Assembly (NCBI GenBank): GCA_041496705.1
Contig: JBGQFD010000006.1
Span: 244 to 64,243, forward strand
DNA: 64,000 nucleotides
Direction: 5' to 3'
DNA from: Gammaproteobacteria bacterium
Lineage (GTDB): Bacteria > Pseudomonadota > Gammaproteobacteria > Burkholderiales > SG8-39
The stretch's first letter is position 1; the number at the start of each line of letters is the position of its first letter. Both the position numbers and the translations under genes were made by a program. The notes below the pieces were generated by a model. The model was not told where the DNA came from, ran no database searches, and saw only the letters and a program-made list of their open reading frames with translations. Positions 9,372 to 64,000 of this stretch are shown one piece after another.

Positions 9372-9979
9372 CCGGACACGAGCAAAAAGCTCTCTCCGGC
9401 CGCTCGGATTTCCAGGCGATCGCCGCCTGGGTGCGGCCGGACTCGAGCGTGCTCGACCTGGGCTGTGGAGACGGGCTGCTGCTGCGCTTCCTCGCGCAGA
9501 CCCGCAATGCGCGCGGCTACGGGATCGAGATCGCCGACGCCAACGTGCTTGCCTGCGTGGAAAACGGGGTCAACGTCATCCAGAGCGATCTCGAGCGCGG
9601 CCTCGCCGGGTTCGACGCCGGCTCGTTCGACTGCGTGATCCTGTCGCAAACTCTGCAGGCAGTACTGCACACCGAGGAAATCATGCTGGAGATGCTGCGC
9701 GTGGGCCGCGAGGCAGTCGTGTCCTTCCCGAATTTCGGGCGCTGGGACTTGCGACTGCAGATCGCGCTCGGCAGGATGCCCGTATCGGCGGAGCTTCCCT
9801 ACCAGTGGTACAACACGCCCAACGTGCACCTGTTCACCCTCGCGGATTTCGAGTCGTTCTGCGCGAGCCACGCCATCCACGTTCTCGAGCGCGTGGTGCT
9901 GCACCGCGGGCGGCCGGTCGCCGCCTTCGCCAATTTCTTCGGCAGCCTCGCCGTCTACCGCGTCGAGAAACGGCGTTAA
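9368..9979 (+). CDS. metW: Methionine biosynthesis protein MetW
   Basis: [30 protein letters not shown]; coupled to metX. Confidence 0.93.
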
Positions 9980-12500: not shown

Positions 12501-13751
12501 TCAGTTGCGCGCCGGAGCGCCTGCTTCCACCGCCGCGATCTCCCTGCGCAGCAGCCACACCAGCAGCAATCCGGGCAAGGCGGCGACGAAGGTAACGATG
12601 AAGAAACCGGCCCAGTCCATGAATACGACCATCTCCCCGGTTGCGGGTCCGAAAACGACGCGCCCGAGCGACGCAAGCGCCGAAAGCAACGCGTACTGAG
12701 TCGCCGAAAAGCGGTGATTGCACAGGGCCATCGCAAGAGCGACGAATGCCGCAGTGCCCATTCCGCTTGCGAGGTTCTCGAACGCCACCGTGAAAACGAG
12801 CAGCGCGTAGCTCTTGCCCGCCCAGGCGAGCACTGCAAACGAAAGGTTCGACACCGCCTGGAGGACGCCGAACAATAGCAGCGCCCGAACCAGACTCATG
12901 TTCGTCATCAGCATCCCGCCGAGCAGCGCCCCGGTGACGAGCGACGCGAATCCGAGCCACTTGTTGACCAGGCCAACCTCGGTCAGTCCGAAACCAACGC
13001 CGCGGATCAGGAACGCGGTGGTGAGCGTGCCAGCCAGAGCATCGCCAAATTTGTACAGAATGATGAGCAACAGCAGACTCACCGCTCCGGGGCGCAGGAA
13101 AAAATCCTTTAGCGGCGCCACGACCGCCTCTGCGAGCGTGCGTGGCACGTCGGGTGGCGTCGCGGGCTCGGGAGCGAAAAACGATGCGAGAACGCCGATC
13201 CCCATCAGCGCAGCCATGAGGAAGTAAGTCGAGCGCCAGCCGATCTGGTCCGCCAGGATCAGCGCGAGCCCGCCAGAGGCGAGCATCGCGATGCGATAGC
13301 CGAGCACGCCGACCGCGGCGCCAATGCCGCGCTCCTTCGCAGCCAGCAAGTCGGTGCGGTAAGCGTCAACGACGATGTCCTGCGAGGCCGAGGCAAACGC
13401 CACCCAGAGTGCCAATGCCCCGACCACCCAGATCGAGTCATCGGGAGAGGCCGTGCCCATTGCCACGATGCCGAGCACCAGCGCAAGCTGGGTGAGAAGC
13501 ATCCAGCCGCGTCTTCTGCCGAGAAACGGCGGGACGTACCGGTCAAGCGCGGGAGACCAGAGAAATTTCAGCAGGTACGGAATCCCGATCCAGGAAAACC
13601 AGGCGATCGTTCTGATGTCGATTCCGGCGACCGTGAGCCAAGCTTGCAGCGTGCCGCCGGTGAGGGCGAGCGGCAGCCCCGAGGAAAATCCGAGGACGAG
13701 GATCGCGGCGAGCCGGGGATTGCGAAGCGCTTCGAAGTAAGGCGAAAACAT
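12501..13751 (-). CDS. ampG: Muropeptide MFS permease AmpG
   Basis: LGFSSGLP, KFLWSP, SASQDIVVDAYR, GYRIAM, SATQYALLS. Confidence 0.93.
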   Translation of the reverse strand: MFSPYFEALRNPRLAAILVLGFSSGLPLALTGGTLQAWLTVAGIDIRTIAWFSWIGIPYLLKFLWSPALDRYVPPFLGRRRGWMLLTQLALVLGIVAMGTASPDDSIWVVGALALWVAFASASQDIVVDAYRTDLLAAKERGIGAAVGVLGYRIAMLASGGLALILADQIGWRSTYFLMAALMGIGVLASFFAPEPATPPDVPRTLAEAVVAPLKDFFLRPGAVSLLLLIILYKFGDALAGTLTTAFLIRGVGFGLTEVGLVNKWLGFASLVTGALLGGMLMTNMSLVRALLLFGVLQAVSNLSFAVLAWAGKSYALLVFTVAFENLASGMGTAAFVALAMALCNHRFSATQYALLSALASLGRVVFGPATGEMVVFMDWAGFFIVTFVAALPGLLLVWLLRREIAAVEAGAPARN

Positions 13752-34520: not shown

Positions 34521-34710
34521 CAAAGACCGACGCGCTTTGCGCGCGGCTTTGCTTCTGCGCGATCGAGCGGGCGTATTGAGCAGATTCAACTCCTGCCAGC
34601 TCCGGAGACGCCGCTCATCGCGCAGCCTTCCTCGGCTTTTCGCGTGGTCGCCGCATCACGGGGCGTGGCAGTTCTGCTAGACTGCCTGCATAAGAATCGT
34701 TCGGTGTCTC

Positions 34711-53409: not shown

Positions 53410-55068
53410 TCAGTCGAGCGGACCTGCCGAGTAGGCGCGCTCGATCTCGGCGCCGAAGGTCTTAAGCACGCGCTCGCGCCGCACCTTGAGTGTCGCCGTC
53501 AGCAGGCCGTTCTCGACTGTCCAGGGCTCGCGCGTCGCGATGACCCGCCGCACGCGGATGTAACGCGGGAAACCCTTGAGGCGCTCGTTGGCGCGACGGA
53601 TGAGCCCCTTCTCGTCGGTTTCCCGCGTCACGGCGACCAGTGTGAGGAATGGACGGCCCTCGCCGATCAGTATTCCTTGCTCGAAGGCCAGGTCGCCGAG
53701 AATTGCCAGCTCGACATCCTGCGGCGGAAGCTTCTCGCCGTTGGATAGCACGAGCACGTCCTTCAGCCGGCCGCGGATGAAGATCCTGCCCGAGCGAATC
53801 TCGGCGAGATCGCCGGTGTGCAGCCAGCCCTCGGGATCGAGCGCCTTCGCGGTCGCCTCGGGGTCATTCCAGTAGCCCAGCATGACACTCGGGCCGCGCG
53901 CGAGCAGCTCGCCTTGCGGGCCGAGGCGCACCTCGACGTTGTCGAGCGCAATCCCCACCGACTCCGGGACGTTTCCCTCGAGCCGGTTGACCGAAATCAC
54001 CGGAGAGGCTTCGGTCATCCCGTATCCCTGCAGCAGCGGCAGGCCCAGACCGATGAAGAGCCACGCGATAGACGCATCCAGGGGAGCGCCGCCGAGCACG
54101 GCGAAGCGCAGCCGGCCACCCAGCCTCGCGAGCACTGGCTGCGCGACGCGCCGGCGCAGCAGGGCGAGCACGATCCGATCGGCAAGCCCGGCCTCGCCGC
54201 GCGCAGCGCGGCCCCCCGCCGCGACCACGCGCTCGAAGAGGCGCTTCTTCGCCGGCGACGCGGCGAGCGTCTCGTTGACGCGCGCGGCGAAGCGCTCGAA
54301 AACGCGCGGCACGGCGTACACCACCGTGGGCTGCTGGCTCGCGAGGTCCTCGGCGAGCTGCGAAACCGAGCGCGCAAACGCAACCTGCGCACCGATCGAC
54401 AGAGGCAGGTAGTAGCCCCCCGTACGCTCGAGCATGTGCGACAGAGGCAGGAACGAAAGGAACCGGTCATCCGATCGGGCGAGGCGCGTGCGTTCGCTTG
54501 CGGCGACGTTGGCAAGGATGTTGCCATGACTGAGCATGACGCCCTTGGGCCGGCCGGCGGTGCCGGAGGTGTAGCACACGGTGGCAAGAGTACCTGCGCC
54601 GAGATCCGCAACGGAGAATGCGGGCGCCTGCTTCGGCAGGACCGCGTCCACCGTTGCATGCCCGCTCCCGGTTTCGGTGGCGAGGCAAAGGATGCGCGGC
54701 GCCGTGGCCAGCTTCGCCAGCTCGCCCGCCATGCGGCCGCTTTCCACCACCAGAAGGCGCGCGCCGCTGTTTTCCAGGCACCAGGCGACGTTTTCCGGGT
54801 TGTCGTCGACGTACAGCGGCACGATCACCATGCCCATTCCCAGCGCCGCCTGGTCGGCCGCGACCCAGTGAATGCCGTTTCTGAGACACAGTGCGATGCG
54901 CTCCCCGAGCGCGAACCCTTCGGCGCGCAGATACGCCTGCCAGCGCGCCGCGTAGGCGGCAATGTCGCGCGCCGATATGTCACGCCAGCTGCCCTCGAGG
55001 TGCTGGCGATAGAGAATGCGATCCGGCGTCGCCAGCTGCGCCTGCAGGAGCCCTGCGATGTTGGCCAT
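53410..55068 (-). CDS. Long-chain fatty acid--CoA ligase (AMP-binding)
   Basis: YTSGTAGRPKG, FLPLSH, QGYGMTE, WLHTGD, GRLKD. Confidence 0.92.
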   Translation of the reverse strand: MANIAGLLQAQLATPDRILYRQHLEGSWRDISARDIAAYAARWQAYLRAEGFALGERIALCLRNGIHWVAADQAALGMGMVIVPLYVDDNPENVAWCLENSGARLLVVESGRMAGELAKLATAPRILCLATETGSGHATVDAVLPKQAPAFSVADLGAGTLATVCYTSGTAGRPKGVMLSHGNILANVAASERTRLARSDDRFLSFLPLSHMLERTGGYYLPLSIGAQVAFARSVSQLAEDLASQQPTVVYAVPRVFERFAARVNETLAASPAKKRLFERVVAAGGRAARGEAGLADRIVLALLRRRVAQPVLARLGGRLRFAVLGGAPLDASIAWLFIGLGLPLLQGYGMTEASPVISVNRLEGNVPESVGIALDNVEVRLGPQGELLARGPSVMLGYWNDPEATAKALDPEGWLHTGDLAEIRSGRIFIRGRLKDVLVLSNGEKLPPQDVELAILGDLAFEQGILIGEGRPFLTLVAVTRETDEKGLIRRANERLKGFPRYIRVRRVIATREPWTVENGLLTATLKVRRERVLKTFGAEIERAYSAGPLD

Positions 55069-55160
55069 GAATTCTCCGCCACGGCGCGCGACCCGCGCAG
55101 GCCTGCGCCGCCTGTAATAAGCTGCGGTCTTGCCGCACCTCTCATCATCCTGAACCTGCC

Positions 55161-56321
55161 TTGACCCCGCAAGCCTTCTTTGCCTCCTGCCCTCGCGGCC
55201 TGGAGGCCCTGCTCGCCGACGAGCTTCGCGGGCTGGGCGCGCGGACGATGCAGACGCTTCCGGGCGGGGTGGCGTTCGAGGGCGATCTGCGTACCTGCTA
55301 CCGAGCAAACCTCGAGTCGCGGCTCGCCACGCGCGTGCTCATGTGCCTCGCGCGCACGCCCTGCCGCAACGAGGATGACGTCTACGCCGCTGCGCACGCG
55401 CTCCCCTGGAGCGACTGGTTCAGCGAGAAGCAGAGCATCCGGGTGGATGTCAACGCCATCCGCTCGCCGCTGAAGAGCCTGGAGTTCGCCACGCTGCGCA
55501 TCAAGGACGCAGTGTGCGACCGCTTCCGCGCCGATCTCGGGCAGCGCCCCGACGTCGACACACGCTCGCCGCAAGTGCGCATCCAGGCGTTTCTGGACCG
55601 CGACAGCATCACGCTGTACCTGGACACCTCGGGCGAGCCTCTGCACAAACGCGGCTACCGGCGCGAGGCAGCCGAGGCACCTCTGAAGGAAAACCTCGCC
55701 GCCGGGATCCTGCGCCTGTCGGGCTGGGATGGACGGGAACCCCTGCTCGAGCCGATGTGCGGCAGCGGCACGTTGGCGATCGAAGCCGCGCTGATGGCGC
55801 TCGCCATTCCCCCCGGACACGCGCGCCGGTTCGGTTTCGAGCGCCTGGCGGGATTCGACGCCCGGGCGTGGAACGACGTACGCGACGCGGCGCTGGCGCG
55901 CGCAGAAAGACCGCGTGCGCTGCCGATCCATGCGCGCGACCGCTACGGAGACGAACTGAAGCGCGCAAGCGCGAACGTCCAAGCAGCGGGGCTCGCCGGC
56001 TGCATCGAGCTGAAGCAGGCCGACATCCTCGACACCGGCGCTCCGGCCGCAAGCGGCGTGCTAGTCGCGAATCCGCCGTACGGCGCGCGCATCGGCGAGG
56101 ACCAGGAACTTGCCGAGTTCTACCCGAAGCTCGGCGACACGCTGAAGAAATACTACGCCGGCTGGCGCTGCTACTTCTTTTCCGGCGACGCGCGCCTGCC
56201 GAGGCTGATCCGACTCACGGCAACGAAAAAAACGCCGCTCTTCAACGGCCCTATCGAGTGCCGGCTGTACGAGTACCGGATCGTCGCCGGTTCCAACCGC
56301 AGGAAAGCCGCCACCGGCTGA
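55161..56321 (+). CDS. THUMP-domain RNA methyltransferase (RlmL-like, single MTase domain)
   Basis: GLEALL, SGEPLHKRGYR, APLKENLAA, PMCGSGT, NPPYG. Confidence 0.9.
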   Translation: MTPQAFFASCPRGLEALLADELRGLGARTMQTLPGGVAFEGDLRTCYRANLESRLATRVLMCLARTPCRNEDDVYAAAHALPWSDWFSEKQSIRVDVNAIRSPLKSLEFATLRIKDAVCDRFRADLGQRPDVDTRSPQVRIQAFLDRDSITLYLDTSGEPLHKRGYRREAAEAPLKENLAAGILRLSGWDGREPLLEPMCGSGTLAIEAALMALAIPPGHARRFGFERLAGFDARAWNDVRDAALARAERPRALPIHARDRYGDELKRASANVQAAGLAGCIELKQADILDTGAPAASGVLVANPPYGARIGEDQELAEFYPKLGDTLKKYYAGWRCYFFSGDARLPRLIRLTATKKTPLFNGPIECRLYEYRIVAGSNRRKAATG

Positions 56322-56327
56322 ACGCGA

Positions 56328-56768
56328 TCAGAGAAGGCGGCCGCGCGTTCCGGTCACGGCGAGGAAGATCTCGCGCAGAAACACCATCAGCGCCATGATG
56401 AAGGAGAGCATCGCGCCGATGAAAAGCAGCCCGATGAACTTCGAGAGGTCCAGGTCGATGAGGGCGTCGACGAAGGCGGTGGCGATCAGCATCCCGACGC
56501 AAATTGCGCACAGCACGGCGAGCACCATCGAGCCGTAGACGAGGTGCACGCGCCGGCCGAGCACCTCGAGCTCCGCGCGCACGCCGGTCTGTCCTTCCGG
56601 GGTCAGTTGTCGCAATCGATCCTCGAGCATGCGTCTGCGGTCTACGGCGCGTCCGAGCCGCGTGGTGAGGACGCCGATGATCGTGCCCACCGCGGTGAGC
56701 AGGAACACCGGCGCCACCGCTAGCTGGATGAGCCTGGTGACGTCGATTATGTTGTCCGGGCTGGTCAT
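56328..56768 (-). CDS. DUF2721 membrane protein
   Basis: IQLAVAPVFLL..RLGR.VDR. Confidence 0.85.
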   Translation of the reverse strand: MTSPDNIIDVTRLIQLAVAPVFLLTAVGTIIGVLTTRLGRAVDRRRMLEDRLRQLTPEGQTGVRAELEVLGRRVHLVYGSMVLAVLCAICVGMLIATAFVDALIDLDLSKFIGLLFIGAMLSFIMALMVFLREIFLAVTGTRGRLL

Positions 56769-56795
56769 CTCGGGTCTCCCTGGTCGGCGCCGCGC

Positions 56796-57119
56796 TTAGA
56801 CCATCGCCTTGCGCAGCGCATGCTTAAAGTGGTGGATGTGGTCCAGCGCCACCTTGAGTTTCTCGCGGTCCTTCGCGGCGAGCGCTTCGTCGCGCTTCTT
56901 CTGCCATTCGCGGATCTTTGCCTTGAACGCGCCCTTGTCGATCCCCTTTACTTCGTGGTGGACGTGCATGTCGATGCCGAGCGCCTTGCAGAGAGCCTCG
57001 AGCAGGTGATCCTTGTTGAGCTGGGTGTAGCCCTTCACCGCCTCGTGCTCGATGCCCGCCGCGATCTCGCGCAGCTCGGCGAGGGGCTTCGCTTTCAGCT
57101 CAGGAAAAGTGTGTGCCAT
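56796..57119 (-). CDS. Small basic hypothetical protein with Rho-N-terminal-like helical motif
   Basis: ELKAKPLAELREIA...GYTQLNKDHLL; GGAG RBS. Confidence 0.65.
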   Translation of the reverse strand: MAHTFPELKAKPLAELREIAAGIEHEAVKGYTQLNKDHLLEALCKALGIDMHVHHEVKGIDKGAFKAKIREWQKKRDEALAAKDREKLKVALDHIHHFKHALRKAMV

Positions 57120-57163
57120 GGTTTCAGCTCCCTGAAAGAACGGCAATGATACCTCGCGCGACC

Positions 57164-57664
57164 CTAGGCCGCGCCCAGCTCCTTCTCGATGTCGGGCTCG
57201 AGCGCCTCAGGGACGGTCTTGGGCGCATAGCGCTCCACCACCTGGCCGTCGCGGCCGATCAGGAACTTGGTGAAATTCCACTTGATCGCCTCGGTGCCCA
57301 GAAGCCCCGGCGCCTCGCGCACCAGCCACCGGTACAGCGGGTGGGCGCCCGGACCGTTCACCTCGATCTTGTCGAACATCCGGAAGCTCACGCCGTAGTT
57401 CTTCTCGCAGAACGCGCCGATCGCCGCGGCGTCGCCGGGCTCCTGCTTGCCGAACTGGTTGCAGGGAAAGCCGAGCACCGCGAGGCCCTGGTCGTGATAC
57501 TTGCGGTGCAGCGCCTCCAGACCCGCGTACTGCGGCGTGAAGCCGCATTCGCTCGCGGTGTTCACCACCAGCACCACCTTGCCGCGGAAGTCCGCTAGCG
57601 GCAGCTCGCCTCCCTGCAGCATCTTCGCGGAGAAATCGTAGAGTGTGCCCTGCGGCTTGCCCAT
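57164..57664 (-). CDS. Glutathione peroxidase (BtuE/Gpx family)
   Basis: VNTASECGFT, GFPCNQF, KWNFTKFL. Confidence 0.95.
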   Translation of the reverse strand: MGKPQGTLYDFSAKMLQGGELPLADFRGKVVLVVNTASECGFTPQYAGLEALHRKYHDQGLAVLGFPCNQFGKQEPGDAAAIGAFCEKNYGVSFRMFDKIEVNGPGAHPLYRWLVREAPGLLGTEAIKWNFTKFLIGRDGQVVERYAPKTVPEALEPDIEKELGAA

Positions 57665-58318
57665 TCAGGAGCCTCCCGCGCTGCGGCGTATGTCCGCAAC
57701 GCCGCAGAATCTTACACCCTCGCCCCCCCTTTCCACCGCATCAGCCAGCGCCGCGACCATCTGCGCGAGCGTGACCAAGCCCAGGCGCTGCGCCGCGGCC
57801 CGCGTCGCCGGAATCACCTCGAGCAGCTTGAACACCGGCAGCAGCGCAAGCGGCCAGCGGTGGCCGGGTCCGAGCACGTACCAAGGCCGCAGTATCGTCG
57901 CCGCGATGCCACTCGCCACGACGAGCGCCTCGCCCTCCCTGCGCGCGGCGATGTAGGCCTGCATCACCGGCGCCGGATGCGCGACGCTGACGTAGACGAG
58001 GTGGCGCACCGTGGAATTGTGCGCCGCCGCTAGCGAAGCGCGGATCGACGCCAGATCGACCTGGAAAAACTCATCCGCCTTGGCGGGATTGGGGTGCGGC
58101 GTGCCCACCAGGTGCACAAGCGTGTCGCACGGCGCGATGGCCGCCGCGAAGCTCGCCGCATCGAGCGCGTTGCCGCTCACCGCCTGCGCCCCTCGCGGCA
58201 GCTTCGACTCCGAGCCGCGCCGCACCAGCGCGCGCACCGCGTGCCCGCGCGCGAGCAGCTCGCGCACGAGCGCCCGCCCCATGTAGCCGGTACCCCCGGT
58301 GACGAACACCGCCGTCAT
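57665..58318 (-). CDS. NAD(P)-binding epimerase/dehydratase-like protein
   Basis: VTGGTGYMG Rossmann motif, LRPWYVLGP. Confidence 0.85.
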   Translation of the reverse strand: MTAVFVTGGTGYMGRALVRELLARGHAVRALVRRGSESKLPRGAQAVSGNALDAASFAAAIAPCDTLVHLVGTPHPNPAKADEFFQVDLASIRASLAAAHNSTVRHLVYVSVAHPAPVMQAYIAARREGEALVVASGIAATILRPWYVLGPGHRWPLALLPVFKLLEVIPATRAAAQRLGLVTLAQMVAALADAVERGGEGVRFCGVADIRRSAGGS

Positions 58319-58935
58319 CTAACCACCGCGCCGTTCCAGACGCGCAGCGCGAACACGAAGATCCACAGCGACAGAGTTCCCGACGCGAGGCGCTCGTACA
58401 ATCCGCGCCATCCTCCAGGCTCCGGGTTCCAGGTCATCAGCGCGAGAAACGCGAGGCCGAGCACGCTCGAAACGGCCGAATACGCCACCAGGCCGCGCAG
58501 GTCGCGATGCCGCCTGAACTCGATGCCCCAGAGAAATACCGACAGCAGCAACGCGACGAAGCCGGCGGTCGCAAACATGCCGTGCAGGCGCGCGGCGAGC
58601 GACGCGGCCTCGGCGCACCCCGGCTCGCAGGAGAAAAAGCCGGCGCCGAGTCGCGAAAGACCATTCACGCCGAGCAGCGCCGCCGCGGACGCCGCGAGCC
58701 GGCCGCGGAACAGAACGCCGAGAACCGCAGCAAAGGCGACGTGCATGAGCCCGGTGGGCGCAAAGCCGGCGTAGCGCATGAGGAGCTCGGTCGGGCTGCC
58801 GCGCTCGCCGAGTTCGCTGATGTATTGCGCGGCGTGGCTGAACCCGGGGCGCAGCGCGCCGCAGAAGGCGATGCTTGCTGCCCACAGGAGCGGCGCGAGT
58901 ATGCCGCAGAAAACGCCGATCCTGCGCGGATTCAT
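58315..58935 (-). CDS. DUF998 membrane protein
   Basis: QYISELG, multiple TM segments, LHG, GLYER. Confidence 0.8.
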   Translation of the reverse strand: MNPRRIGVFCGILAPLLWAASIAFCGALRPGFSHAAQYISELGERGSPTELLMRYAGFAPTGLMHVAFAAVLGVLFRGRLAASAAALLGVNGLSRLGAGFFSCEPGCAEAASLAARLHGMFATAGFVALLLSVFLWGIEFRRHRDLRGLVAYSAVSSVLGLAFLALMTWNPEPGGWRGLYERLASGTLSLWIFVFALRVWNGAVVR

Positions 58936-59144
58936 GTCGTCAGGCGTGTCACGACGGGGAGTGGCGGGATGGCGCGACTTGCAGAATTGGTAGCGGGGGT
59001 TGCGTAGCTAGACGCATGACTGCGACCTCGACACGCCGGCGACGCAAATAGTCGCCGAGCTCTTGGAAGCGCTTGCCACCCGGTGCCTCGACGCGTTGGC
59101 GGTCGATCTGGCGGCAACCCTGTGTGTCCAAGAGCATTGCCGCG

Positions 59145-59202
59145 CGCCAACGTTTGAGTTCAGCGGCTGGTAAAGGCAGTCCGCTGAAACGAAGCGCCAG
59201 GC
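59145..59202 (-). repeat. attC site with mutated R'' (GCCTGGC in place of GCCTAAC)
   Basis: Minus strand gcctggc-gcttc-gtttcagcggactg-cctttac-cagccgctgaac-tcaaac-gttggcg; L-box pairing with bulged bases retained. Confidence 0.8.
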
Positions 59203-59218
59203 TGCTGCGATGCGGGCT

Positions 59219-59731
59219 TCATGGGCACTCCTTTGAAACTCTGAGCCCCTTCAGGAAAGCACGGCGAACTGTCCCCGCAGCGATGGCCGCAGCAACCTGC
59301 TTCGAGTAACGCTCTGCCCCACTGAGCTTTCTGACCCACCCTCGGAAGGGAACGACAGCTTCTGCTGTGCGACGCAGGGCGCCAACCGCTGCCGTACTTG
59401 CCGCGCTAGAGCCGCGCTCGATGAGGCCTGGATTGCTGGCGGAAGCGGCTGCATCCAAGTCCGGGCCAAGCACCTCATCAAGGGCGCGAACACTCGCTTT
59501 GAGAGAGGCACAACTCTGATCTGGCGGTACCGAGTAAGGCTCCTTCTGCGCCTCCACAAGGACAGCCGGTATTTCCGCGTGAACCACGTTCAGATCGCTG
59601 AGCGGTGTTGCGGCCGCATCCACAACGCCTGACTGCCCTTGTGTTGTGCAAGCCACCTACACGAGCGCAAGCAAGACAGAGGTTGATCGGTGCACGGCGC
59701 CGACGAGCATGCATGGCCTATGTGTTTGCAT
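59219..59731 (-). pseudogene. Cassette lipoprotein gene with in-frame TAG in the signal peptide
   Basis: GGAGG RBS + ATG 59731, MQTHRPCMLVGAVHRSTSVLLALV*VACTTQ; TAG at 59657-59659 just before lipobox-like VAC; frame open to 59219. Confidence 0.75.
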
Positions 59732-59772
59732 TTTCCTCCACCGTGACGACGTGTCACCTTCCTTGAACAGCA

Positions 59773-59854
59773 GCCTAAGGTCGTGCCGTGCGGCGGGCCG
59801 CCGCGATACCAATAAAACCCGCTCGCCGCTGCCGGGCCGACGCGGACGTCAGAC
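59773..59854 (-). repeat. Decayed attC-like site (R'' GTCTGAC, R' CTTAGGC)
   Basis: Upstream gene's TGA lies in the R''-like box; the R'-like box begins a 9-bp inverted repeat with the far end of the next cassette. Confidence 0.5.
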
Positions 59855-60085
59855 TCTCTTCTCGAGGACGAAGCTGAGCACGAGAAGTGTCACCGGCCAA
59901 AGTCCGACGAAGATTCCCCAGCGTTCTGCGTGAGCTTCCTGCAGCGCCGCCTTCAGCGCGGGATCGGTGATATTGCTGAGGACACGCCGTCCCATCTCGA
60001 ATTGCGGTCCGAAAAACCACACCAGCCATGACAGCGGGATCGAAAGCAATCCGACCCAGAACAAGACTTGCGATAGCATTTGCAT
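59849..60085 (-). CDS. Small two-TM hypothetical protein (probable old cassette)
   Basis: AGGAGG RBS; HAERWGIFVGLWP; two hydrophobic helices. Confidence 0.75.
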   Translation of the reverse strand: MQMLSQVLFWVGLLSIPLSWLVWFFGPQFEMGRRVLSNITDPALKAALQEAHAERWGIFVGLWPVTLLVLSFVLEKRV

Positions 60086-60210
60086 GTCGTCCTCCTTGCG
60101 TTAAGGTGCAACAAACCCTCGTCTAAGGTCATCCGACATTATCTCCTCCACCATTCACCTGAACAATATAGAAGAAAAGCGAATCGCGAGGATGAATGCC
60201 GTCATGATCT

Positions 60211-61302
60211 TCAGCCATTGCTTCGCGGGGACAACGGCAGGCTCCTTGGCGGGCTGTGCCAGGGCAGCAGGTGCTTGCGAAAGAACGCCGCGATCTTGCG
60301 GTCCACCTCGGGGAGCACGGAGCGGTCGAAGCCAAGCGGGTCGTTCAGCAGGTCAGCGATGACGCCGGACAGCCCGGGCGGAAAGGGTGACAGCAACGCG
60401 CCATGGCCCCCGTTTAGGAAATCACCCAGCCGCTCGCACCCGGCGCATGCTTGGAGCACGCGGTCACTGTGAAAGCGTGGGACCAGCCATTTGTCCTGCC
60501 GTGCGGTCACCAGTGCCAGGGGCACACGCGGTGCAGCCAGCGAGGCGAAGTCAAAGTCCACGGCAAACGGGACACCGGCGACGACCGCGGCGAGGCGCGG
60601 TTCAGTGTGGGTGTACCACGTAGCGTCTTCGAGCCGCCAGCGAATTACCGTCAGGGCGACCGTCTTCTTCAATCCATCCAGGAAGTCGCCGTTCAGCCGG
60701 GTCGCCAGACCAACGCAGGAGTGAAAATCCTCGGCGATGTGCGCTTCGCAGTGATCTCTCAATTGTGCCGGCGACCATCGGCCGCCTGCCAGGCTGAGGG
60801 CTGTGTGCCCGCCTGCGGACATGCCATACATGCCTACCTTGTCCAGCGCGAGCAGCGGCGCGAAGCGCCGATCCTGCCTCACCGCGTCGATGGCGCGCGA
60901 CACCTCAACCGGCCGGCGCTTCCAGCTCTCGGGCCCCGCCGCGCTTGAATCCTTGTAGTTGTCGCCCCGGTGCTCGGGCATGGCGACCACGAAACCGCTT
61001 TCTACCAAGGCGCGAGCCAGGTCGGCATGCACCCAAGGGGAGCCGCCCGAGCCGTGCGAGATGACGATGAGGCGCCCATTGCCGCGCACGATGGCGCCCT
61101 GCGAGGCGACATGGAGAGTGAAGGGGCCACGTTTGAGCGGCTGCGCTTCGCTGCTGGAGGGGTAGTAGACGGTCACGCGGCCATTGCCGTCCTCGTCGTC
61201 GATCTCGGTCAAGCCCACAGCGGCCTGCGCTACGGCGGCCAGCAGAGCGAGCGCTGCGGCGAGGAGAAAGCGAGCTTCGGAAATGTTTGAATGCGTGGAC
61301 AT
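60211..61302 (-). CDS. Cassette gene: exported predicted dienelactone-hydrolase-like alpha/beta hydrolase
   Basis: Signal peptide, ISHGSGG, HRGDN, GMSAGG nucleophile motif; ATG 3 nt after GTTAGCC. Confidence 0.85.
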   Translation of the reverse strand: MSTHSNISEARFLLAAALALLAAVAQAAVGLTEIDDEDGNGRVTVYYPSSSEAQPLKRGPFTLHVASQGAIVRGNGRLIVISHGSGGSPWVHADLARALVESGFVVAMPEHRGDNYKDSSAAGPESWKRRPVEVSRAIDAVRQDRRFAPLLALDKVGMYGMSAGGHTALSLAGGRWSPAQLRDHCEAHIAEDFHSCVGLATRLNGDFLDGLKKTVALTVIRWRLEDATWYTHTEPRLAAVVAGVPFAVDFDFASLAAPRVPLALVTARQDKWLVPRFHSDRVLQACAGCERLGDFLNGGHGALLSPFPPGLSGVIADLLNDPLGFDRSVLPEVDRKIAAFFRKHLLPWHSPPRSLPLSPRSNG

Positions 61303-61305
61303 GTC

Positions 61306-61398
61306 GGCTAACGTCCGCGTTGAGCGGCGCGCCGCCACGGACACCAGCTAAAGGCGCACTGCTTATCGGTGCGTCCGCTCTCGAACGCGTTGTTAGGG
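61306..61398 (-). repeat. attC site (intact, 93 bp)
   Basis: ccctaac-aacgc-gttcgagagcggacgc...gcgccgctcaac-gcggac-gttagcc; TAA of upstream gene in R''. Confidence 0.92.
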
Positions 61399-61749
61399 CG
61401 CTCGTGCCTTGCGAAGTGCCGCACTCCAACCCCCAGAAAGAACAAATCGCGGAAACGTTACCCACTGTTCAAAGAAAAGACGCGACACGAAATTTAGCGG
61501 CCCGCTGAAGGGTTCGGGCGGTACCGGTTCCAGGCGGTGTCCACGACCTTGTAACGCGACCGCCACGACGATACATCCGAGAAACACCGCGAAAAGCAAG
61601 AGCGAAACTTGAACGACGGCCGCAACAAGACCAATGGTTCCGACCAAAAATAGAGGAACGGCAAAAATGTGAATGAGCAAGTTGGCGTGAGCCTGGTGAT
61701 ACTTGGGATAGCCCTCCCACTGCCATTGTAATAGTTGACTGACGCTCAT
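61393..61749 (-). CDS. Cassette gene: DUF962/Mpo1-like membrane protein
   Basis: YPKYHQ..NLLIH..AVP...QGRGH.LE. Confidence 0.8.
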   Translation of the reverse strand: MSVSQLLQWQWEGYPKYHQAHANLLIHIFAVPLFLVGTIGLVAAVVQVSLLLFAVFLGCIVVAVALQGRGHRLEPVPPEPFSGPLNFVSRLFFEQWVTFPRFVLSGGWSAALRKARAP

Positions 61750-61766
61750 ACTCTAGCGCTAGAGAG

Positions 61767-61822
61767 CTCTAACGTCCGCGTTCAAAGACGCGCCAAGGAC
61801 GATTTGCAACGTCTAGTTAGGC
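61767..61822 (-). repeat. attC site (intact, short, 56 bp)
   Basis: gcctaac-tagac-gttgcaaa...tttgaac-gcggac-gttagag; one extra base in L''. Confidence 0.85.
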
Positions 61823-62209
61823 GTCAGTGTCGGCGACACAGTCGGCCTCGATTTCCACCAGCCAATCGCGGTTGATCAGCCCCTTCACCTCCACGAAGGT
61901 ACAGGCAGGCCTGATACCGGAAAACACCTCTCCGTGTGCGCGTGCTGCTTCTTCCCAGCGAGAAATATCGGTGAGCATTACGCGAGTGCGAATGACGCTC
62001 TGAAGCCCGAGACCGGCACTACCGATCGCCTGGGAAATAATGTCCAGGCAACGCTTCGTCTGACCATAGACATCGCCAGGGGCCGCGACCCCGCCATCAG
62101 CTGCGATGGGTGCCGTGCCTGCAACCGCAACGAATGGCCCGATCCTCACCGCTCGAGAAAACCCGATCTTCGGTTCGAAGGGTGACCCGGAGGATATGAG
62201 CTTGCGCAT
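61817..62209 (-). CDS. Cassette gene: RidA/YjgF family protein
   Basis: SSGSPFE..GFSRAVR...AGT...RPACT...LVEIEAD. Confidence 0.92.
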   Translation of the reverse strand: MRKLISSGSPFEPKIGFSRAVRIGPFVAVAGTAPIAADGGVAAPGDVYGQTKRCLDIISQAIGSAGLGLQSVIRTRVMLTDISRWEEAARAHGEVFSGIRPACTFVEVKGLINRDWLVEIEADCVADTDA

Positions 62210-62222
62210 AATGTCCTCTGAC

Positions 62223-62289
62223 GTCTAACGTTTACAGCGAGGGGCGCGCGCCGCTCTTGCGCGCGTCCCTCTCGACTGTGGGGTTAGAC
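62223..62289 (-). repeat. attC site (intact, 67 bp)
   Basis: gtctaac-cccac-agtcgagagggacgcgcgcaagagcggcgcgcgcccctcgct-gtaaac-gttagac. Confidence 0.92.
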
Positions 62290-62290
62290 C

Positions 62291-62581
62291 TCATGCTTTC
62301 CCCATTCTCCGTTCGAAATCAGTAGCTCGTTCCGAAAGCCCCATATTTTCCGCCGCTTGCACGAGTTGACGCCAGAATTCTGGAGGTGGCGCATTCGTGA
62401 GCCCCAGATCTTCGAGTTCATCGAGGGCAAGCTCCATCTCGTTGTGGCGAAGACACTCTTCGAAGCCGCTGACCGTTGCCCCTTCAGCGCCTGGAGCAAG
62501 CGCTTTCGGCAATAGGTTGCGGGCCGCATTCAAATGCTTGGCGGTACTGGCCCAGCTTCTTTCTAGCTCAGCTCGGTTCAT
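62291..62581 (-). CDS. Cassette gene: small helical hypothetical protein (possibly MafI-like immunity)
   Basis: ECLRHNEMELALDEL...FWRQL..AA; bounded by gttagacctc and gaggtctaac. Confidence 0.7.
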   Translation of the reverse strand: MNRAELERSWASTAKHLNAARNLLPKALAPGAEGATVSGFEECLRHNEMELALDELEDLGLTNAPPPEFWRQLVQAAENMGLSERATDFERRMGKA

Positions 62582-62611
62582 TTAGAGCAAGAGGTCTAAC
62601 TTCCACGACTT

Positions 62612-62749
62612 TCAGCGCACCCAGTAGGTCAAGACCGTCGACCACGGCGATGAATTCCCAGCCCCGGTGATTTTCCAGTGAGTCCACTTTCCGGACAAGT
62701 CTGGAAATCTTCGCTCCCAGCCTCTTTTGATCTGGCGAGGAACTTTCAT
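62612..62749 (-). pseudogene. Truncated cassette remnant lacking its own attC
   Basis: ATG 6 nt after GTTAGAC core; 45-aa ORF MKVPRQIKRGWERRF...; followed by a bare GTTAGAC with no stem. Confidence 0.5.
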
Positions 62750-62755
62750 AGAGAG

Positions 62756-62820
62756 GTCTAACGTTCACGGCGAGGAGCGCGCGCCGTTCTTGCGCGCGTC
62801 CCTCGACTGTGCGGTTAGGC
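62756..62820 (-). repeat. attC site (intact, 65 bp)
   Basis: gcctaac-cgcac-agtcgagggacgcgcgcaagaacggcgcgcgctcctcgcc-gtgaac-gttagac; close relative of 62223-62289. Confidence 0.92.
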
Positions 62821-62841
62821 CGCAGTCCGTCGTTACCTGGT

Positions 62842-63036
62842 TCACTGACGTGCCCGACCGACGAGGCGAAACGCCCAGACGCAAAGCGCCCCCGCTATGA
62901 AAATTGCTACCCATGATATCCAAATCGGAACCACCCAGCTCGCCACCTGGGCGGACCAATTCAATATCAGTCTGACTACATGGACAAGCGCCATCACGCC
63001 GAAGACAACACCTGTGATTTGAATGTACGTCCGCAT
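62842..63036 (-). CDS. Cassette gene: 64-aa two-TM hypothetical protein
   Basis: AGGAG RBS, MRTYIQITGVVFGVMALVHVVRL...W.SW. Confidence 0.8.
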   Translation of the reverse strand: MRTYIQITGVVFGVMALVHVVRLILNWSAQVASWVVPIWISWVAIFIAGALCVWAFRLVGRARQ

Positions 63037-63092
63037 AGCGTGGGCTCCTGTCGACGAATCCAGCTGCCTGGTAAGAATGAGTTCTTGATGCG

Positions 63093-63182
63093 TTCTAACG
63101 TGGAGGTGAGGGGCGGCCGTAGCGGGAAGCGCGAAGGAAACCACTTGCCCGAGGGCGGCTACCGCTCGACCCCGCGCAGTCT
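63093..63182 (-). repeat. Head-of-array attC-like site lacking a recognisable R'' box
   Basis: gtcgagcgg...ggccgcccctcac-ctccac-gttagaa; expected RYYYAAC position reads agactgc; no cassette ORF upstream. Confidence 0.65.
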
Positions 63183-63234
63183 GACGCTGCGCGCCGGGTG
63201 CGACCAGGACGCGCCCCTGCGGGCCGCGCCCGCG

Positions 63235-64000
63235 TCAGACGATGTTCAGGTGCTCGGTGCCCTGCATGATGTCCTTGTTCTTCGCTTCCTTGGAGTGCAG
63301 CTTGATCTGCAGGCGCAGGTCGTTGACGCTGTCGGCGTTCCTGAGCGCGTCCTCGTAGCTGATCCTGCCCGACTCGAACAGGTCGAACAGGGCCTGGTCG
63401 AAGGTCTGCATGCCCAGTTCGCGCGATTTCTTCATGATCTCCTTGATCTCGTGCACCTCGCCCTTGAAGATGAGGTCGGAGATGAGCGGGGAGTTGAGCA
63501 TGATCTCTACCGCGGCGCAGCGGCCCTTGCCTTCCTTCAGCGGGATGAGGCGCTGCGAGACGAGGCCGCGGATGTTCAGCGAAAGATCCATGAGCAGTTG
63601 CGCACGCCGTTCCTCGGGGAAAAAGTTGATGATGCGGTCCAGGGCCTGGTTGGCGCTGTTCGCGTGCAAGGTGCACAGGCACAGGTGGCCCGTTTCGGCG
63701 AACGCAATCGCATGCTCCATGGTCTCGCGGTCGCGGACCTCGCCGATGAGGATGACGTCGGGCGCCTGGCGCAGGGTGTTCTTGAGCGCGCTCTCCCAGT
63801 TGAGCGTGTCCACGCCCACCTCCCGCTGCGTGATGAGGCAGCCTTTGTGCGGGTGGGTAAACTCGACCGGGTCCTCGATGGTGATGATGTGTCCTTGAGA
63901 GTTCTCGTTGCGAAAACCGACCATCGCCGCGAGCGTGGTGGACTTGCCCGAGCCGGTGGCGCCCACCATGATCACCAGGCCGCGCTTGGTCATGATGATG
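63235..64000 (-). CDS. pilU: Type IV pilus retraction ATPase PilU (3' part; start outside window)
   Basis: GATGSGKSTT, TIEDPVE, LIGEVRD, TLHANSA, PilU-type C-terminus (DLIFKGE...GMQTFDQAL...NADSVNDLRL). Confidence 0.9.
   Translation of the reverse strand, partial: IIMTKRGLVIMVGATGSGKSTTLAAMVGFRNENSQGHIITIEDPVEFTHPHKGCLITQREVGVDTLNWESALKNTLRQAPDVILIGEVRDRETMEHAIAFAETGHLCLCTLHANSANQALDRIINFFPEERRAQLLMDLSLNIRGLVSQRLIPLKEGKGRCAAVEIMLNSPLISDLIFKGEVHEIKEIMKKSRELGMQTFDQALFDLFESGRISYEDALRNADSVNDLRLQIKLHSKEAKNKDIMQGTEHLNIV

Follow-up and report, generated by a model that had tools for sequence, protein, structure and literature searches.

A gene cassette array without an integrase behind pilU in an uncultured sediment bacterium, and its probable origin from a chromosomal integron

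How does an array of integron gene cassettes come to lie directly behind pilU, in the same orientation, with no integrase gene beside it? We addressed this question for a stretch of 64,000 nucleotides (nt), here called the window (genome G000, contig C6; G000:C6:244-64243), from a draft genome bin of a Burkholderiales gammaproteobacterium (168 contigs, 86.5% complete). On the minus strand of the window, pilT is followed by pilU (stop codon 63235-63237; positions are those of the window unless a contig is named), and pilU is followed by the cassette array. The array is a genuine cluster of attC sites lacking an integron-integrase (CALIN), most likely left by a sedentary chromosomal integron that lay between pilU and a conserved gene, p116, and that lost its integrase gene (intI), its attI site, and its cassette promoter (Pc) by deletion.

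attC sites and the missing integrase

An earlier note, made from the sequence alone, had described four intact attC sites and several decayed ones in this array. To search for them, we used a covariance model (R1) that was home-built from 12 attCs of the same genome, none of them on C6 (11 on C38 and 1 on C15), and is not the attC model of IntegronFinder. RNAalifold recovered the expected R and L stems from the training alignment, with compensatory changes in 10 of 16 pairs. Because R1 was trained only on other contigs, its matches in the window constitute an independent test. Run over the whole window on both strands with filters off, R1 returned five minus-strand matches, all within the array (Table 1): the four sites described as intact, beginning at 62756, 62223, 61767, and 61306, and a fifth at 59145. 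The rest of the window contained nothing at E < 0.1 apart from plus-strand echoes of two palindromic sites. The one further match at E < 1, partial and distant from the array (34561-34622, plus strand; 15.5 bits, E = 0.15, model positions 13 to 54), is probably just a G+C-rich hairpin.

Read on their own strand, the sites have the architecture GYCTAAC ... GTTAGAC with an imperfect inner palindrome, and at two of them R'' includes the stop codon of the open reading frame (ORF) before it. The core sites R'' (RYYYAAC) and R' (GTTRRRY) are intact at 62756, 62223, 61767 (R' = GTTAGAG), and 61306, whereas one or both boxes are mutated at 59145, 59773, and 63093. When the plus (bottom) strand was folded as DNA, paired R boxes and bulged L stems were obtained for 62756, 62223, and 61306. 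The site at 61767 is the weakest of those with intact boxes, its fold being no better than those of shuffled sequences. As for decayed sites, 59145-59202 is clear and retains its L stems with the R box unpaired, but the other two candidates are weak: 59773-59854 (R1, 8.9 bits, E = 0.45) and 63093-63185 (7.2 bits, E = 1.2) did not reach significance even in a search of 4.5 kb, and neither folds better than shuffles. An additional GTTAGAC at 62600-62594 was considered as a further cassette boundary and rejected, as R1 gave no match there. Two of the window attCs are 86% identical to each other, and one is 88% identical to an attC elsewhere in the genome (C69:19774-19850).

Five attCs (E ≤ 7e-5) are thus clustered on one strand within 3.7 kb, where a CALIN calls for at least two, and contig C6 carries no intI within 4 kb of them, or within 10 kb when pseudogenes are considered. 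The earlier note had also called the array integrase-less, and this was borne out: a profile search with TIGR02249 found no intI on contig C6, and a tblastn search for an intI remnant across 55000-64000 returned only noise at E ≤ 10. A search of 56500-64000 against Rfam gave no family at E ≤ 0.1.

Elsewhere in the genome, TIGR02249 identified one integrase above its cutoff (C15:42682-43626; 477 bits versus 265). The gene is an open frame, and its product aligns end to end with IntI4 (VchIntIA) of PDB entry 2a3v (E = 9e-96) and keeps the conserved C-terminal block ending in IYTHV, as in a tyrosine recombinase with the additional domain specific to IntI. It adjoins an Lhr-type helicase gene and has upstream of it an attI-like site, a first cassette, and one attC (C15:42682-44483; loci L001 and L009), the contig ending 143 nt farther on. 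A second integrase-less array occupies the minus strand of C38 (139-12861; locus L007), with at least 14 R1 matches, and runs off the contig start; it abuts a 51-amino-acid (aa) in-frame intI fragment (12709-12861, plus strand) that is 70% identical to residues 139 to 181 of the C15 integrase. Further attCs, which may be the rest of the C15 array, sit at contig ends (C69, C68, and C63) and on contig C52. Judged from their sequences, the four window attCs with intact boxes should remain substrates of the C15 integrase, which could act on them in trans, provided that contigs C15 and C6 stem from a single cell.

To examine whether the array truly lies behind pilU, we compared contigs from four metagenome runs with the locus. 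The junction between pilU and cassette 1 is bridged in two of the four, by a contig of run X1 (record 3; 1,003 nt, no differences) that spans 62304-63306, including 72 nt of pilU, and by one of run X3 (record 32; no differences) that spans 63007-63277, including 43 nt of pilU. A third contig (X1, record 1; 3,891 nt) bridges the distal end and covers 58700-61342 of the compared stretch. This support is only partly independent, because X1 may be the source sample. Other contigs break at attCs, several sharing an attC and then diverging exactly where it ends (at 62285, 62224/62227, 61309, and 61397), which is expected if similar attCs flank other cassettes in the community. This pattern is the one indirect hint that the window attCs may be recombined by an integrase. 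Depth spikes at attCs and at 59869-60202 were rejected as a readout of copy number. Joints from 61397 to 62243 (X3) and from 61323 to 62243 (X1) were not counted as excision products, given that their sides were of 24 nt or unreported and that the attCs are alike. A chimeric contig joined through a repeated attC would be in keeping with a metagenome bin of 168 contigs and with the breaks and depth spikes of public contigs at attCs, but it is at odds with the bridging contigs, with a junction that has no significant attC repeat, and with the occurrence of arrays in the same place in congeners. Because of the bridging contigs and this synteny, we regard an assembly or binning artifact as the least probable of the explanations weighed here.

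The pilU-p116 interval in congeners and the origin of the array

To determine what occupies this site in related bacteria, we compared what follows pilU in 15 congeners, each species being represented by one genome. Twelve of them share a backbone of pilU, a variable stretch of 0.1 to 8.5 kb, and p116, which encodes a Rho_N-like protein; p116 is usually followed by a DUF2721 gene and a divergent THUMP methyltransferase gene where the retrieved stretch reaches that far. Only about 100 nt separate pilU from p116 at the empty sites of G012 and G010; the other ten have 1.9 to 8.5 kb between the two genes, and the window has 6.1 kb. p116 was not reached in the remaining three: G009 (344 nt before the contig end) and G014 and G041 (not within 10 to 12 kb).

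Two congeners carry an integrase gene at this site. In G042, an intact intI (365-aa open frame; TIGR02249, 487 bits) lies 176 nt from pilU, convergent with pilU and divergent from the array; it is followed by two attC matches on the pilU strand and then by p116. The pilU-p116 interval of G042 thus holds a complete integron, with attI and Pc read by eye only, whereas the window shows no intI with an adjacent attI and Pc. In G014, the same position and orientation are taken by an intI remnant that is frameshifted and covers only residues 119 to 346, the first 118 codons being missing. Its identity to the G042 integrase is 85% over the last 54 residues and 50% before them, as expected of a drifting pseudogene.

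Arrays at the locus are more widespread than integrases. Full-length R1 matches (E ≤ 0.003) were detected downstream of pilU, on the pilU strand, in six of the 15 congeners; a seventh, G017, has a site of 15.8 bits where G006 and G013 have sites of 41 and 40 bits. Between pilU and p116 specifically, attC matches or intI were found in 6 of 15. Cassette content varies among relatives, as the earlier note had anticipated: apart from a glutathione peroxidase (GPx) gene, which is present at the pilU locus in three congeners, none of the 11 genes of the window interval (nine in the array plus the DUF998 and NmrA-like genes) was found in any of the 15.

These comparisons bear on how the array arose. 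The earlier note had proposed that it was docked on a decayed attC, a view not supported by the complete integron of G042 and the truncated intI pseudogene of G014 in the same place. Because these two genomes carry intI there, it is simplest to suppose that the window lineage, too, formerly had intI, attI, and Pc at this spot and later lost them by deletion. In the sequence of events that we propose, a chromosomal integron would once have occupied the pilU-p116 interval in this genus. A deletion in the window lineage would then have removed intI, attI, and the cassette promoter, with one end falling in the pilU 3' flank and the other, on the distal side, apparently within an attC, and would have brought the cassettes directly against pilU in the same orientation. 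What remains is a CALIN of about eight promoterless ORF units with five recognizable attCs, four of them with intact boxes, in which older units have eroded attCs. By way of their folded bottom strands, the cassettes could still be excised by the C15 integrase and inserted again at the attI beside its gene, and expression of the proximal cassettes would depend on read-through from pilT-pilU, attenuated by hairpins.

The junction itself is consistent with such a deletion. By eye, the first ~75 nt past the pilU stop codon match the pilU 3' flank of G014, G009, G042, and the empty-site genome G012, and the first GTTAGAA is preceded by ~40 nt that look like the L'-R' arm of an attC. The R''-less attC that the earlier note had placed about 50 nt after the pilU stop (63093-63185) would then be half pilU flank and half attC: its 5' half aligns by eye with the pilU flanks of congeners, and at most its 3' part, ending in GTTAGAA (63099-63093), looks attC derived.

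The same data bear on an alternative in which intI never stood here and cassettes were instead seeded one after another, by an integrase encoded elsewhere such as that of C15, at a secondary attG-type site past pilU. Insertion by IntI outside att sites, followed by expression from a resident promoter, has been shown experimentally (10.1101/2022.09.11.507474), and seeding is one of the CALIN origins listed in PMC4889954. Independent seeding would also account for the absence of an intI remnant from the window and for the resemblance of its attCs to those of other arrays in the same genome, including the 88% match on C69. It fits less well with what lies left of the first GTTAGAA, which looks by eye like an attC L' arm and not like plain chromosome, or with the attCs at the pilU locus of 6 of the 15 congeners. 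It is also less parsimonious, as an intergenic target of ~100 nt would have to coincide with the interval where G042 has its intact intI and G014 its decayed one. We consider this alternative unlikely.

A rearrangement that parted the array from the C15 integrase gene, leaving two halves of one integron, is very unlikely. Rearrangement is likewise a listed CALIN origin (PMC4889954), and contig C15 ends 143 nt past its first attC with the array unassembled. However, the Lhr-type helicase gene beside the C15 intI is found in the same position in three congeners (G002, G018, and G031), which marks a separate conserved locus, and the C15 integrase is only 64% identical to that at the pilU locus of G042.

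Several observations weigh against our preferred explanation, loss of the integrase platform by deletion. We infer the deletion from comparison alone, because no intI or attI remnant was detected in the window, where tblastn returned noise. The window and G042 have no cassette in common, so the orthology of the two arrays rests on position. R1 scores most boxed attCs of the window at 52 to 59 bits, versus 31 to 37 bits for those at the pilU locus of G042; because the window attCs resemble those of their own genome more than those of G042, the content of the array hints at exchange within the genome, and it may have been built or rebuilt by another integrase. Contig C15 may derive from a different cell than C6, as all of the genomes are draft bins. 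In favor of the explanation, the window groups with G042 in a pilU tree (support, 0.93) and with G042 and G012 in a methyltransferase tree (supports, 0.49 to 0.73). Both, however, are single-gene FastTree phylogenies rooted by assumption on the most divergent genome, G010, and because they disagree over the placement of the empty-site genome G012, they constrain the direction of change, loss versus gain, only loosely.

Integrons are unusually abundant in this genus. Counting the present one, 19 of 31 genomes show a match to intI at E ≤ 1e-40, and in 17 of the 31 a match exceeds the family cutoff, with up to three matches per genome (G012). The chromosomal contexts of these genes number three or more (pilU, Lhr, and others); among 22 intI loci examined, four are adjacent to Lhr and two to pilU. 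pilU was absent from all 80 loci encoding relatives of the G042 integrase (62 to 74% identity) in a scan that excluded this genome and perhaps its near kin, and in which flanks extended to at most 4 kb and were often shorter. Five congeners (G006, G017, G013, G018, and G031; loci L044, L046, L047, L048, and L073) have in common a gene for a 136-aa membrane protein ~25 nt past the pilU stop codon. An attC stands behind this gene in two of them (G006 and G013), G017 has a decayed one there, and by eye the G006 array continues with acetyltransferase-like and dihydrofolate reductase-like ORFs.

Cassette content and expression

Features of the locus are listed in Table 1. The products of pilT and pilU both score above the cutoff of the PilT/PilU family TIGR01420 (pilU, 455 bits versus 319), and we take the second gene to be pilU by a convention based on position and length only. 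Its full length (G000:C6:63481-64614; 378 aa) extends beyond the end of the window, with pilT upstream; the 2 kb of contig past the window contain pilU, pilT, and one divergent gene. G+C content is 0.54 to 0.62 in the array, versus 0.69 to 0.71 in the flanking genes (57.6 to 59 kb).

Table 1. Features of the array and its flanks, in minus-strand order (window positions)
Feature	Position	Strand	Evidence
pilU, 3' part; second PilT/PilU-family ATPase gene of the pilT-pilU pair	63235..64000	-	ORF
Junction; G+C-rich hairpins without canonical U-tract	63100..63234 (135 nt)	-	RNA folds, terminator scan, alignment to congeners
GTTAGAA, R'-type core site heading cassette 1	63093..63099	-	Read from sequence; 3' end of weak R1 match
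Cassette 1; 64-aa ORF (62842-63036), two predicted membrane helices	62762..63098	-	ORF list and R1
attC of cassette 1	62756-62820	-	R1 53.4 bits; DNA fold z -2.7
Cassette 2; overlapping 66-aa (62568-62768) and 96-aa (62291-62581) ORFs	62229..62761	-	
attC of cassette 2	62223-62289	-	R1 59.3 bits, E 4e-12; DNA fold z -5.6
Cassette 3; RidA/YjgF-family protein (61817-62209)	61773..62228	-	PF01042, 1.2e-22
attC of cassette 3	61767-61822	-	R1 29.3 bits, E 7e-5; DNA fold z -0.9
Cassette 4; Mpo1-like/DUF962 membrane protein (61393-61749)	61312..61772	-	PF06127, 1.4e-4, below gathering threshold
attC of cassette 4	61306-61398	-	R1 52.2 bits
Cassette 5; alpha/beta-hydrolase-fold protein, ATG at 61302 to 60211, 363 aa	60211..61311	-	Hydrolase_4, Abhydrolase_1, DLH, all below gathering threshold
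Unit; 78-aa membrane ORF (59849-60085) and candidate decayed attC 59773-59854 (GTCTGAC ... CTTAGGC)	59773..60210	-	
Unit; 145-aa ORF (59219-59656), no family	59145..59772	-	
attC of the 145-aa unit, R''/R' boxes mutated	59145-59202	-	R1 32.0 bits, E 2e-5; DNA fold z -2.8
Array tail; 62-aa ORF (58949-59137), no family	58936..59144	-	
DUF998 protein, NmrA-like NAD(P)-binding protein, glutathione peroxidase (GPx, 57164-57664)	57164..58935	-	Pfam
p116, Rho_N-domain-like; conserved distal flank of the variable interval	56796..57146	-	PF07498, 4.5e-5, just under gathering threshold

We counted about eight to nine ORF units in the array, all on the minus strand, in agreement with the nine or so co-oriented units of the earlier note. 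The ORF of cassette 1, whose ATG is preceded by AGGAG and which would encode 100 aa from an alternative GTG start, matched no Pfam or NCBIfam family, and family searches gave none for the ORFs of cassette 2 or for the last three ORFs of the array. Chromosomal arrays typically have contents of this sort. The stop codon of cassette 3 lies inside R''. Behind cassette 5, no attC was recognizable and R1 gave no match. The tail ORF is possibly a truncated cassette. No toxin-antitoxin cassette was recognized by the family searches, and nothing in the cassette contents points to pilus biology; the functional tie to pili proposed in the earlier note has only adjacency in its favor.

There is good evidence that the cassette 4 unit is a mobile cassette, because it recurs from R' to R'' in an integron of another genome. 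A homologue of its ORF (79% aa identity) is present in another betaproteobacterial metagenome-assembled genome (L121:749-1283), where it sits between two attCs in a seven-attC array that belongs to a complete integron and lies next to an intact intI. Similarity at ~80% nucleotide identity starts just past R' and stops at R'', while the attCs differ. The attC of the L121 homologue is of the 84-nt type of its own host array, as though the recombination site had been exchanged.

Beyond the array tail, the DUF998, NmrA-like, and GPx genes are tightly packed, have native-like G+C (0.69 to 0.71), and carry no attC. DUF998 and NmrA-like genes were absent from the pilU locus of all 15 congeners, and the GPx gene, common to the window, G008, G002, and G040, may be an old terminal cassette. 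In G040 (contig C55; locus L074), an attC of 24 bits at 9507-9570 lies immediately upstream of the GPx gene that precedes p116.

How might such cassettes be expressed? In 58700-63500, a search for sigma-70-like sites gave one (59757-59730), versus 0.7 expected, which is chance level. Terminator-like sites in the same stretch numbered two, both away from the pilU/cassette 1 junction, versus 5.2 expected. Between pilU and cassette 1, the scan found none, consistent with the earlier description of G+C-rich hairpins without a U-tract terminator. Just 6 nt past the long hairpin a U-rich patch begins, and partial termination is possible there. Folded as RNA, the junction forms long G+C hairpins whose stability does not significantly exceed that of shuffles (z = -1.5 and -0.6). 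Because the scan finds no terminator after pilU, read-through from pilU into the cassettes is plausible on sequence grounds, and cassette expression from resident promoters has experimental precedent (10.1101/2022.09.11.507474).

Some relatives differ from the window in this respect. Strong hairpins directly past pilU are followed by U-runs in G014 and G010 (z = -5.8 and -3.8), and by eye G042 has a hairpin and U-run that the terminator scan missed; G012 has hairpins without a U-run. The contrast between a terminator in relatives and none in the window rests on folds and on reading for G042, G014, and G010. In five congeners (G006, G013, G017, G018, and G031), the first cassette gene has a ribosome-binding site of its own and begins ~25 nt past the pilU stop, with no hairpin between. 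Of the hints that the pilTU unit may tolerate or favor such a fusion, this spacing is the strongest. It is possible, though less likely than not, that the array, having lost Pc, was taken over by the pilT-pilU transcription unit, so that proximal cassettes would be coexpressed with the pilus retraction ATPases, and that the same arrangement arose separately in the clade of these five congeners. If so, a housekeeping operon would be a recurrent surrogate promoter for decayed integrons in the genus.

Relation to known integrons

The superintegron of Vibrio cholerae is a sedentary chromosomal integron that is vertically inherited, with attCs that are alike and cassettes of unknown function. The window array resembles it in its chromosomal, vertically inherited location, in attCs similar within the array (86% between two), and in its cassettes of unknown function, but it is tiny and is without integrase, attI, or recognized toxin-antitoxin cassettes. 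As in sedentary chromosomal integrons, the position is the same across related species; in contrast, its five attCs fall short of the more than 19 that mark a large array (PMC4889954), the alternative mark being presence in every genome of a species; the comparison covered one genome per species.

CALINs in the IntegronFinder survey (PMC4889954) carry five attCs on average. Most of them have no trace of an integrase, with a recognizable intI pseudogene nearby in only 15 of 279, and their origin is debated, intI loss being the third of four proposed routes. The window array is like these CALINs in its five attCs, in cassettes mostly without known function, and in an intI that lies elsewhere. 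Unlike them, it has congeners with intact and decayed integrase genes at the orthologous site, and because of this its route of origin can be read by comparison.

Xanthomonas offers a close parallel, with genus-wide ancestral integrons downstream of ilvD in which intI has been inactivated in particular lineages (10.1101/2025.06.18.660453). Common to both are a fixed place beside a housekeeping gene, an intI that is full length or inactivated, and species-specific cassettes. The anchor differs, being here a pilU convergent with intI, as do the empty sites of this genus, its two or more further intI contexts, and its up to three intI matches per genome. The window cassettes also resemble attG cassettes (10.1101/2022.09.11.507474) in lying outside a platform and in that their expression would need an upstream resident promoter; those, however, are single insertions at non-att sites made in trans, whereas relatives of the window had an integron platform at the site. 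Among the listed matches of a literature search, judged by title and opening of the abstract, none concerned an integron at pilU; the search used a loose word-beginning match, and it is not proof of novelty.

Decay of this kind, by loss of intI, is already known and fairly ordinary, and the general view of how integrons work is unchanged by it. What the locus adds is a series of four states at one fixed chromosomal site in a genus whose members are uncultured bacteria of sediments. The site holds an integron that is intact in one genome and reduced to a drifting intI pseudogene in another, while further genomes have arrays without an integrase and with wholly different cassettes, or an empty site. 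This series provides compact natural support for the origin of CALINs by integrase loss, and it makes the locus a place to study the expression and turnover of arrays after the integrase has gone.

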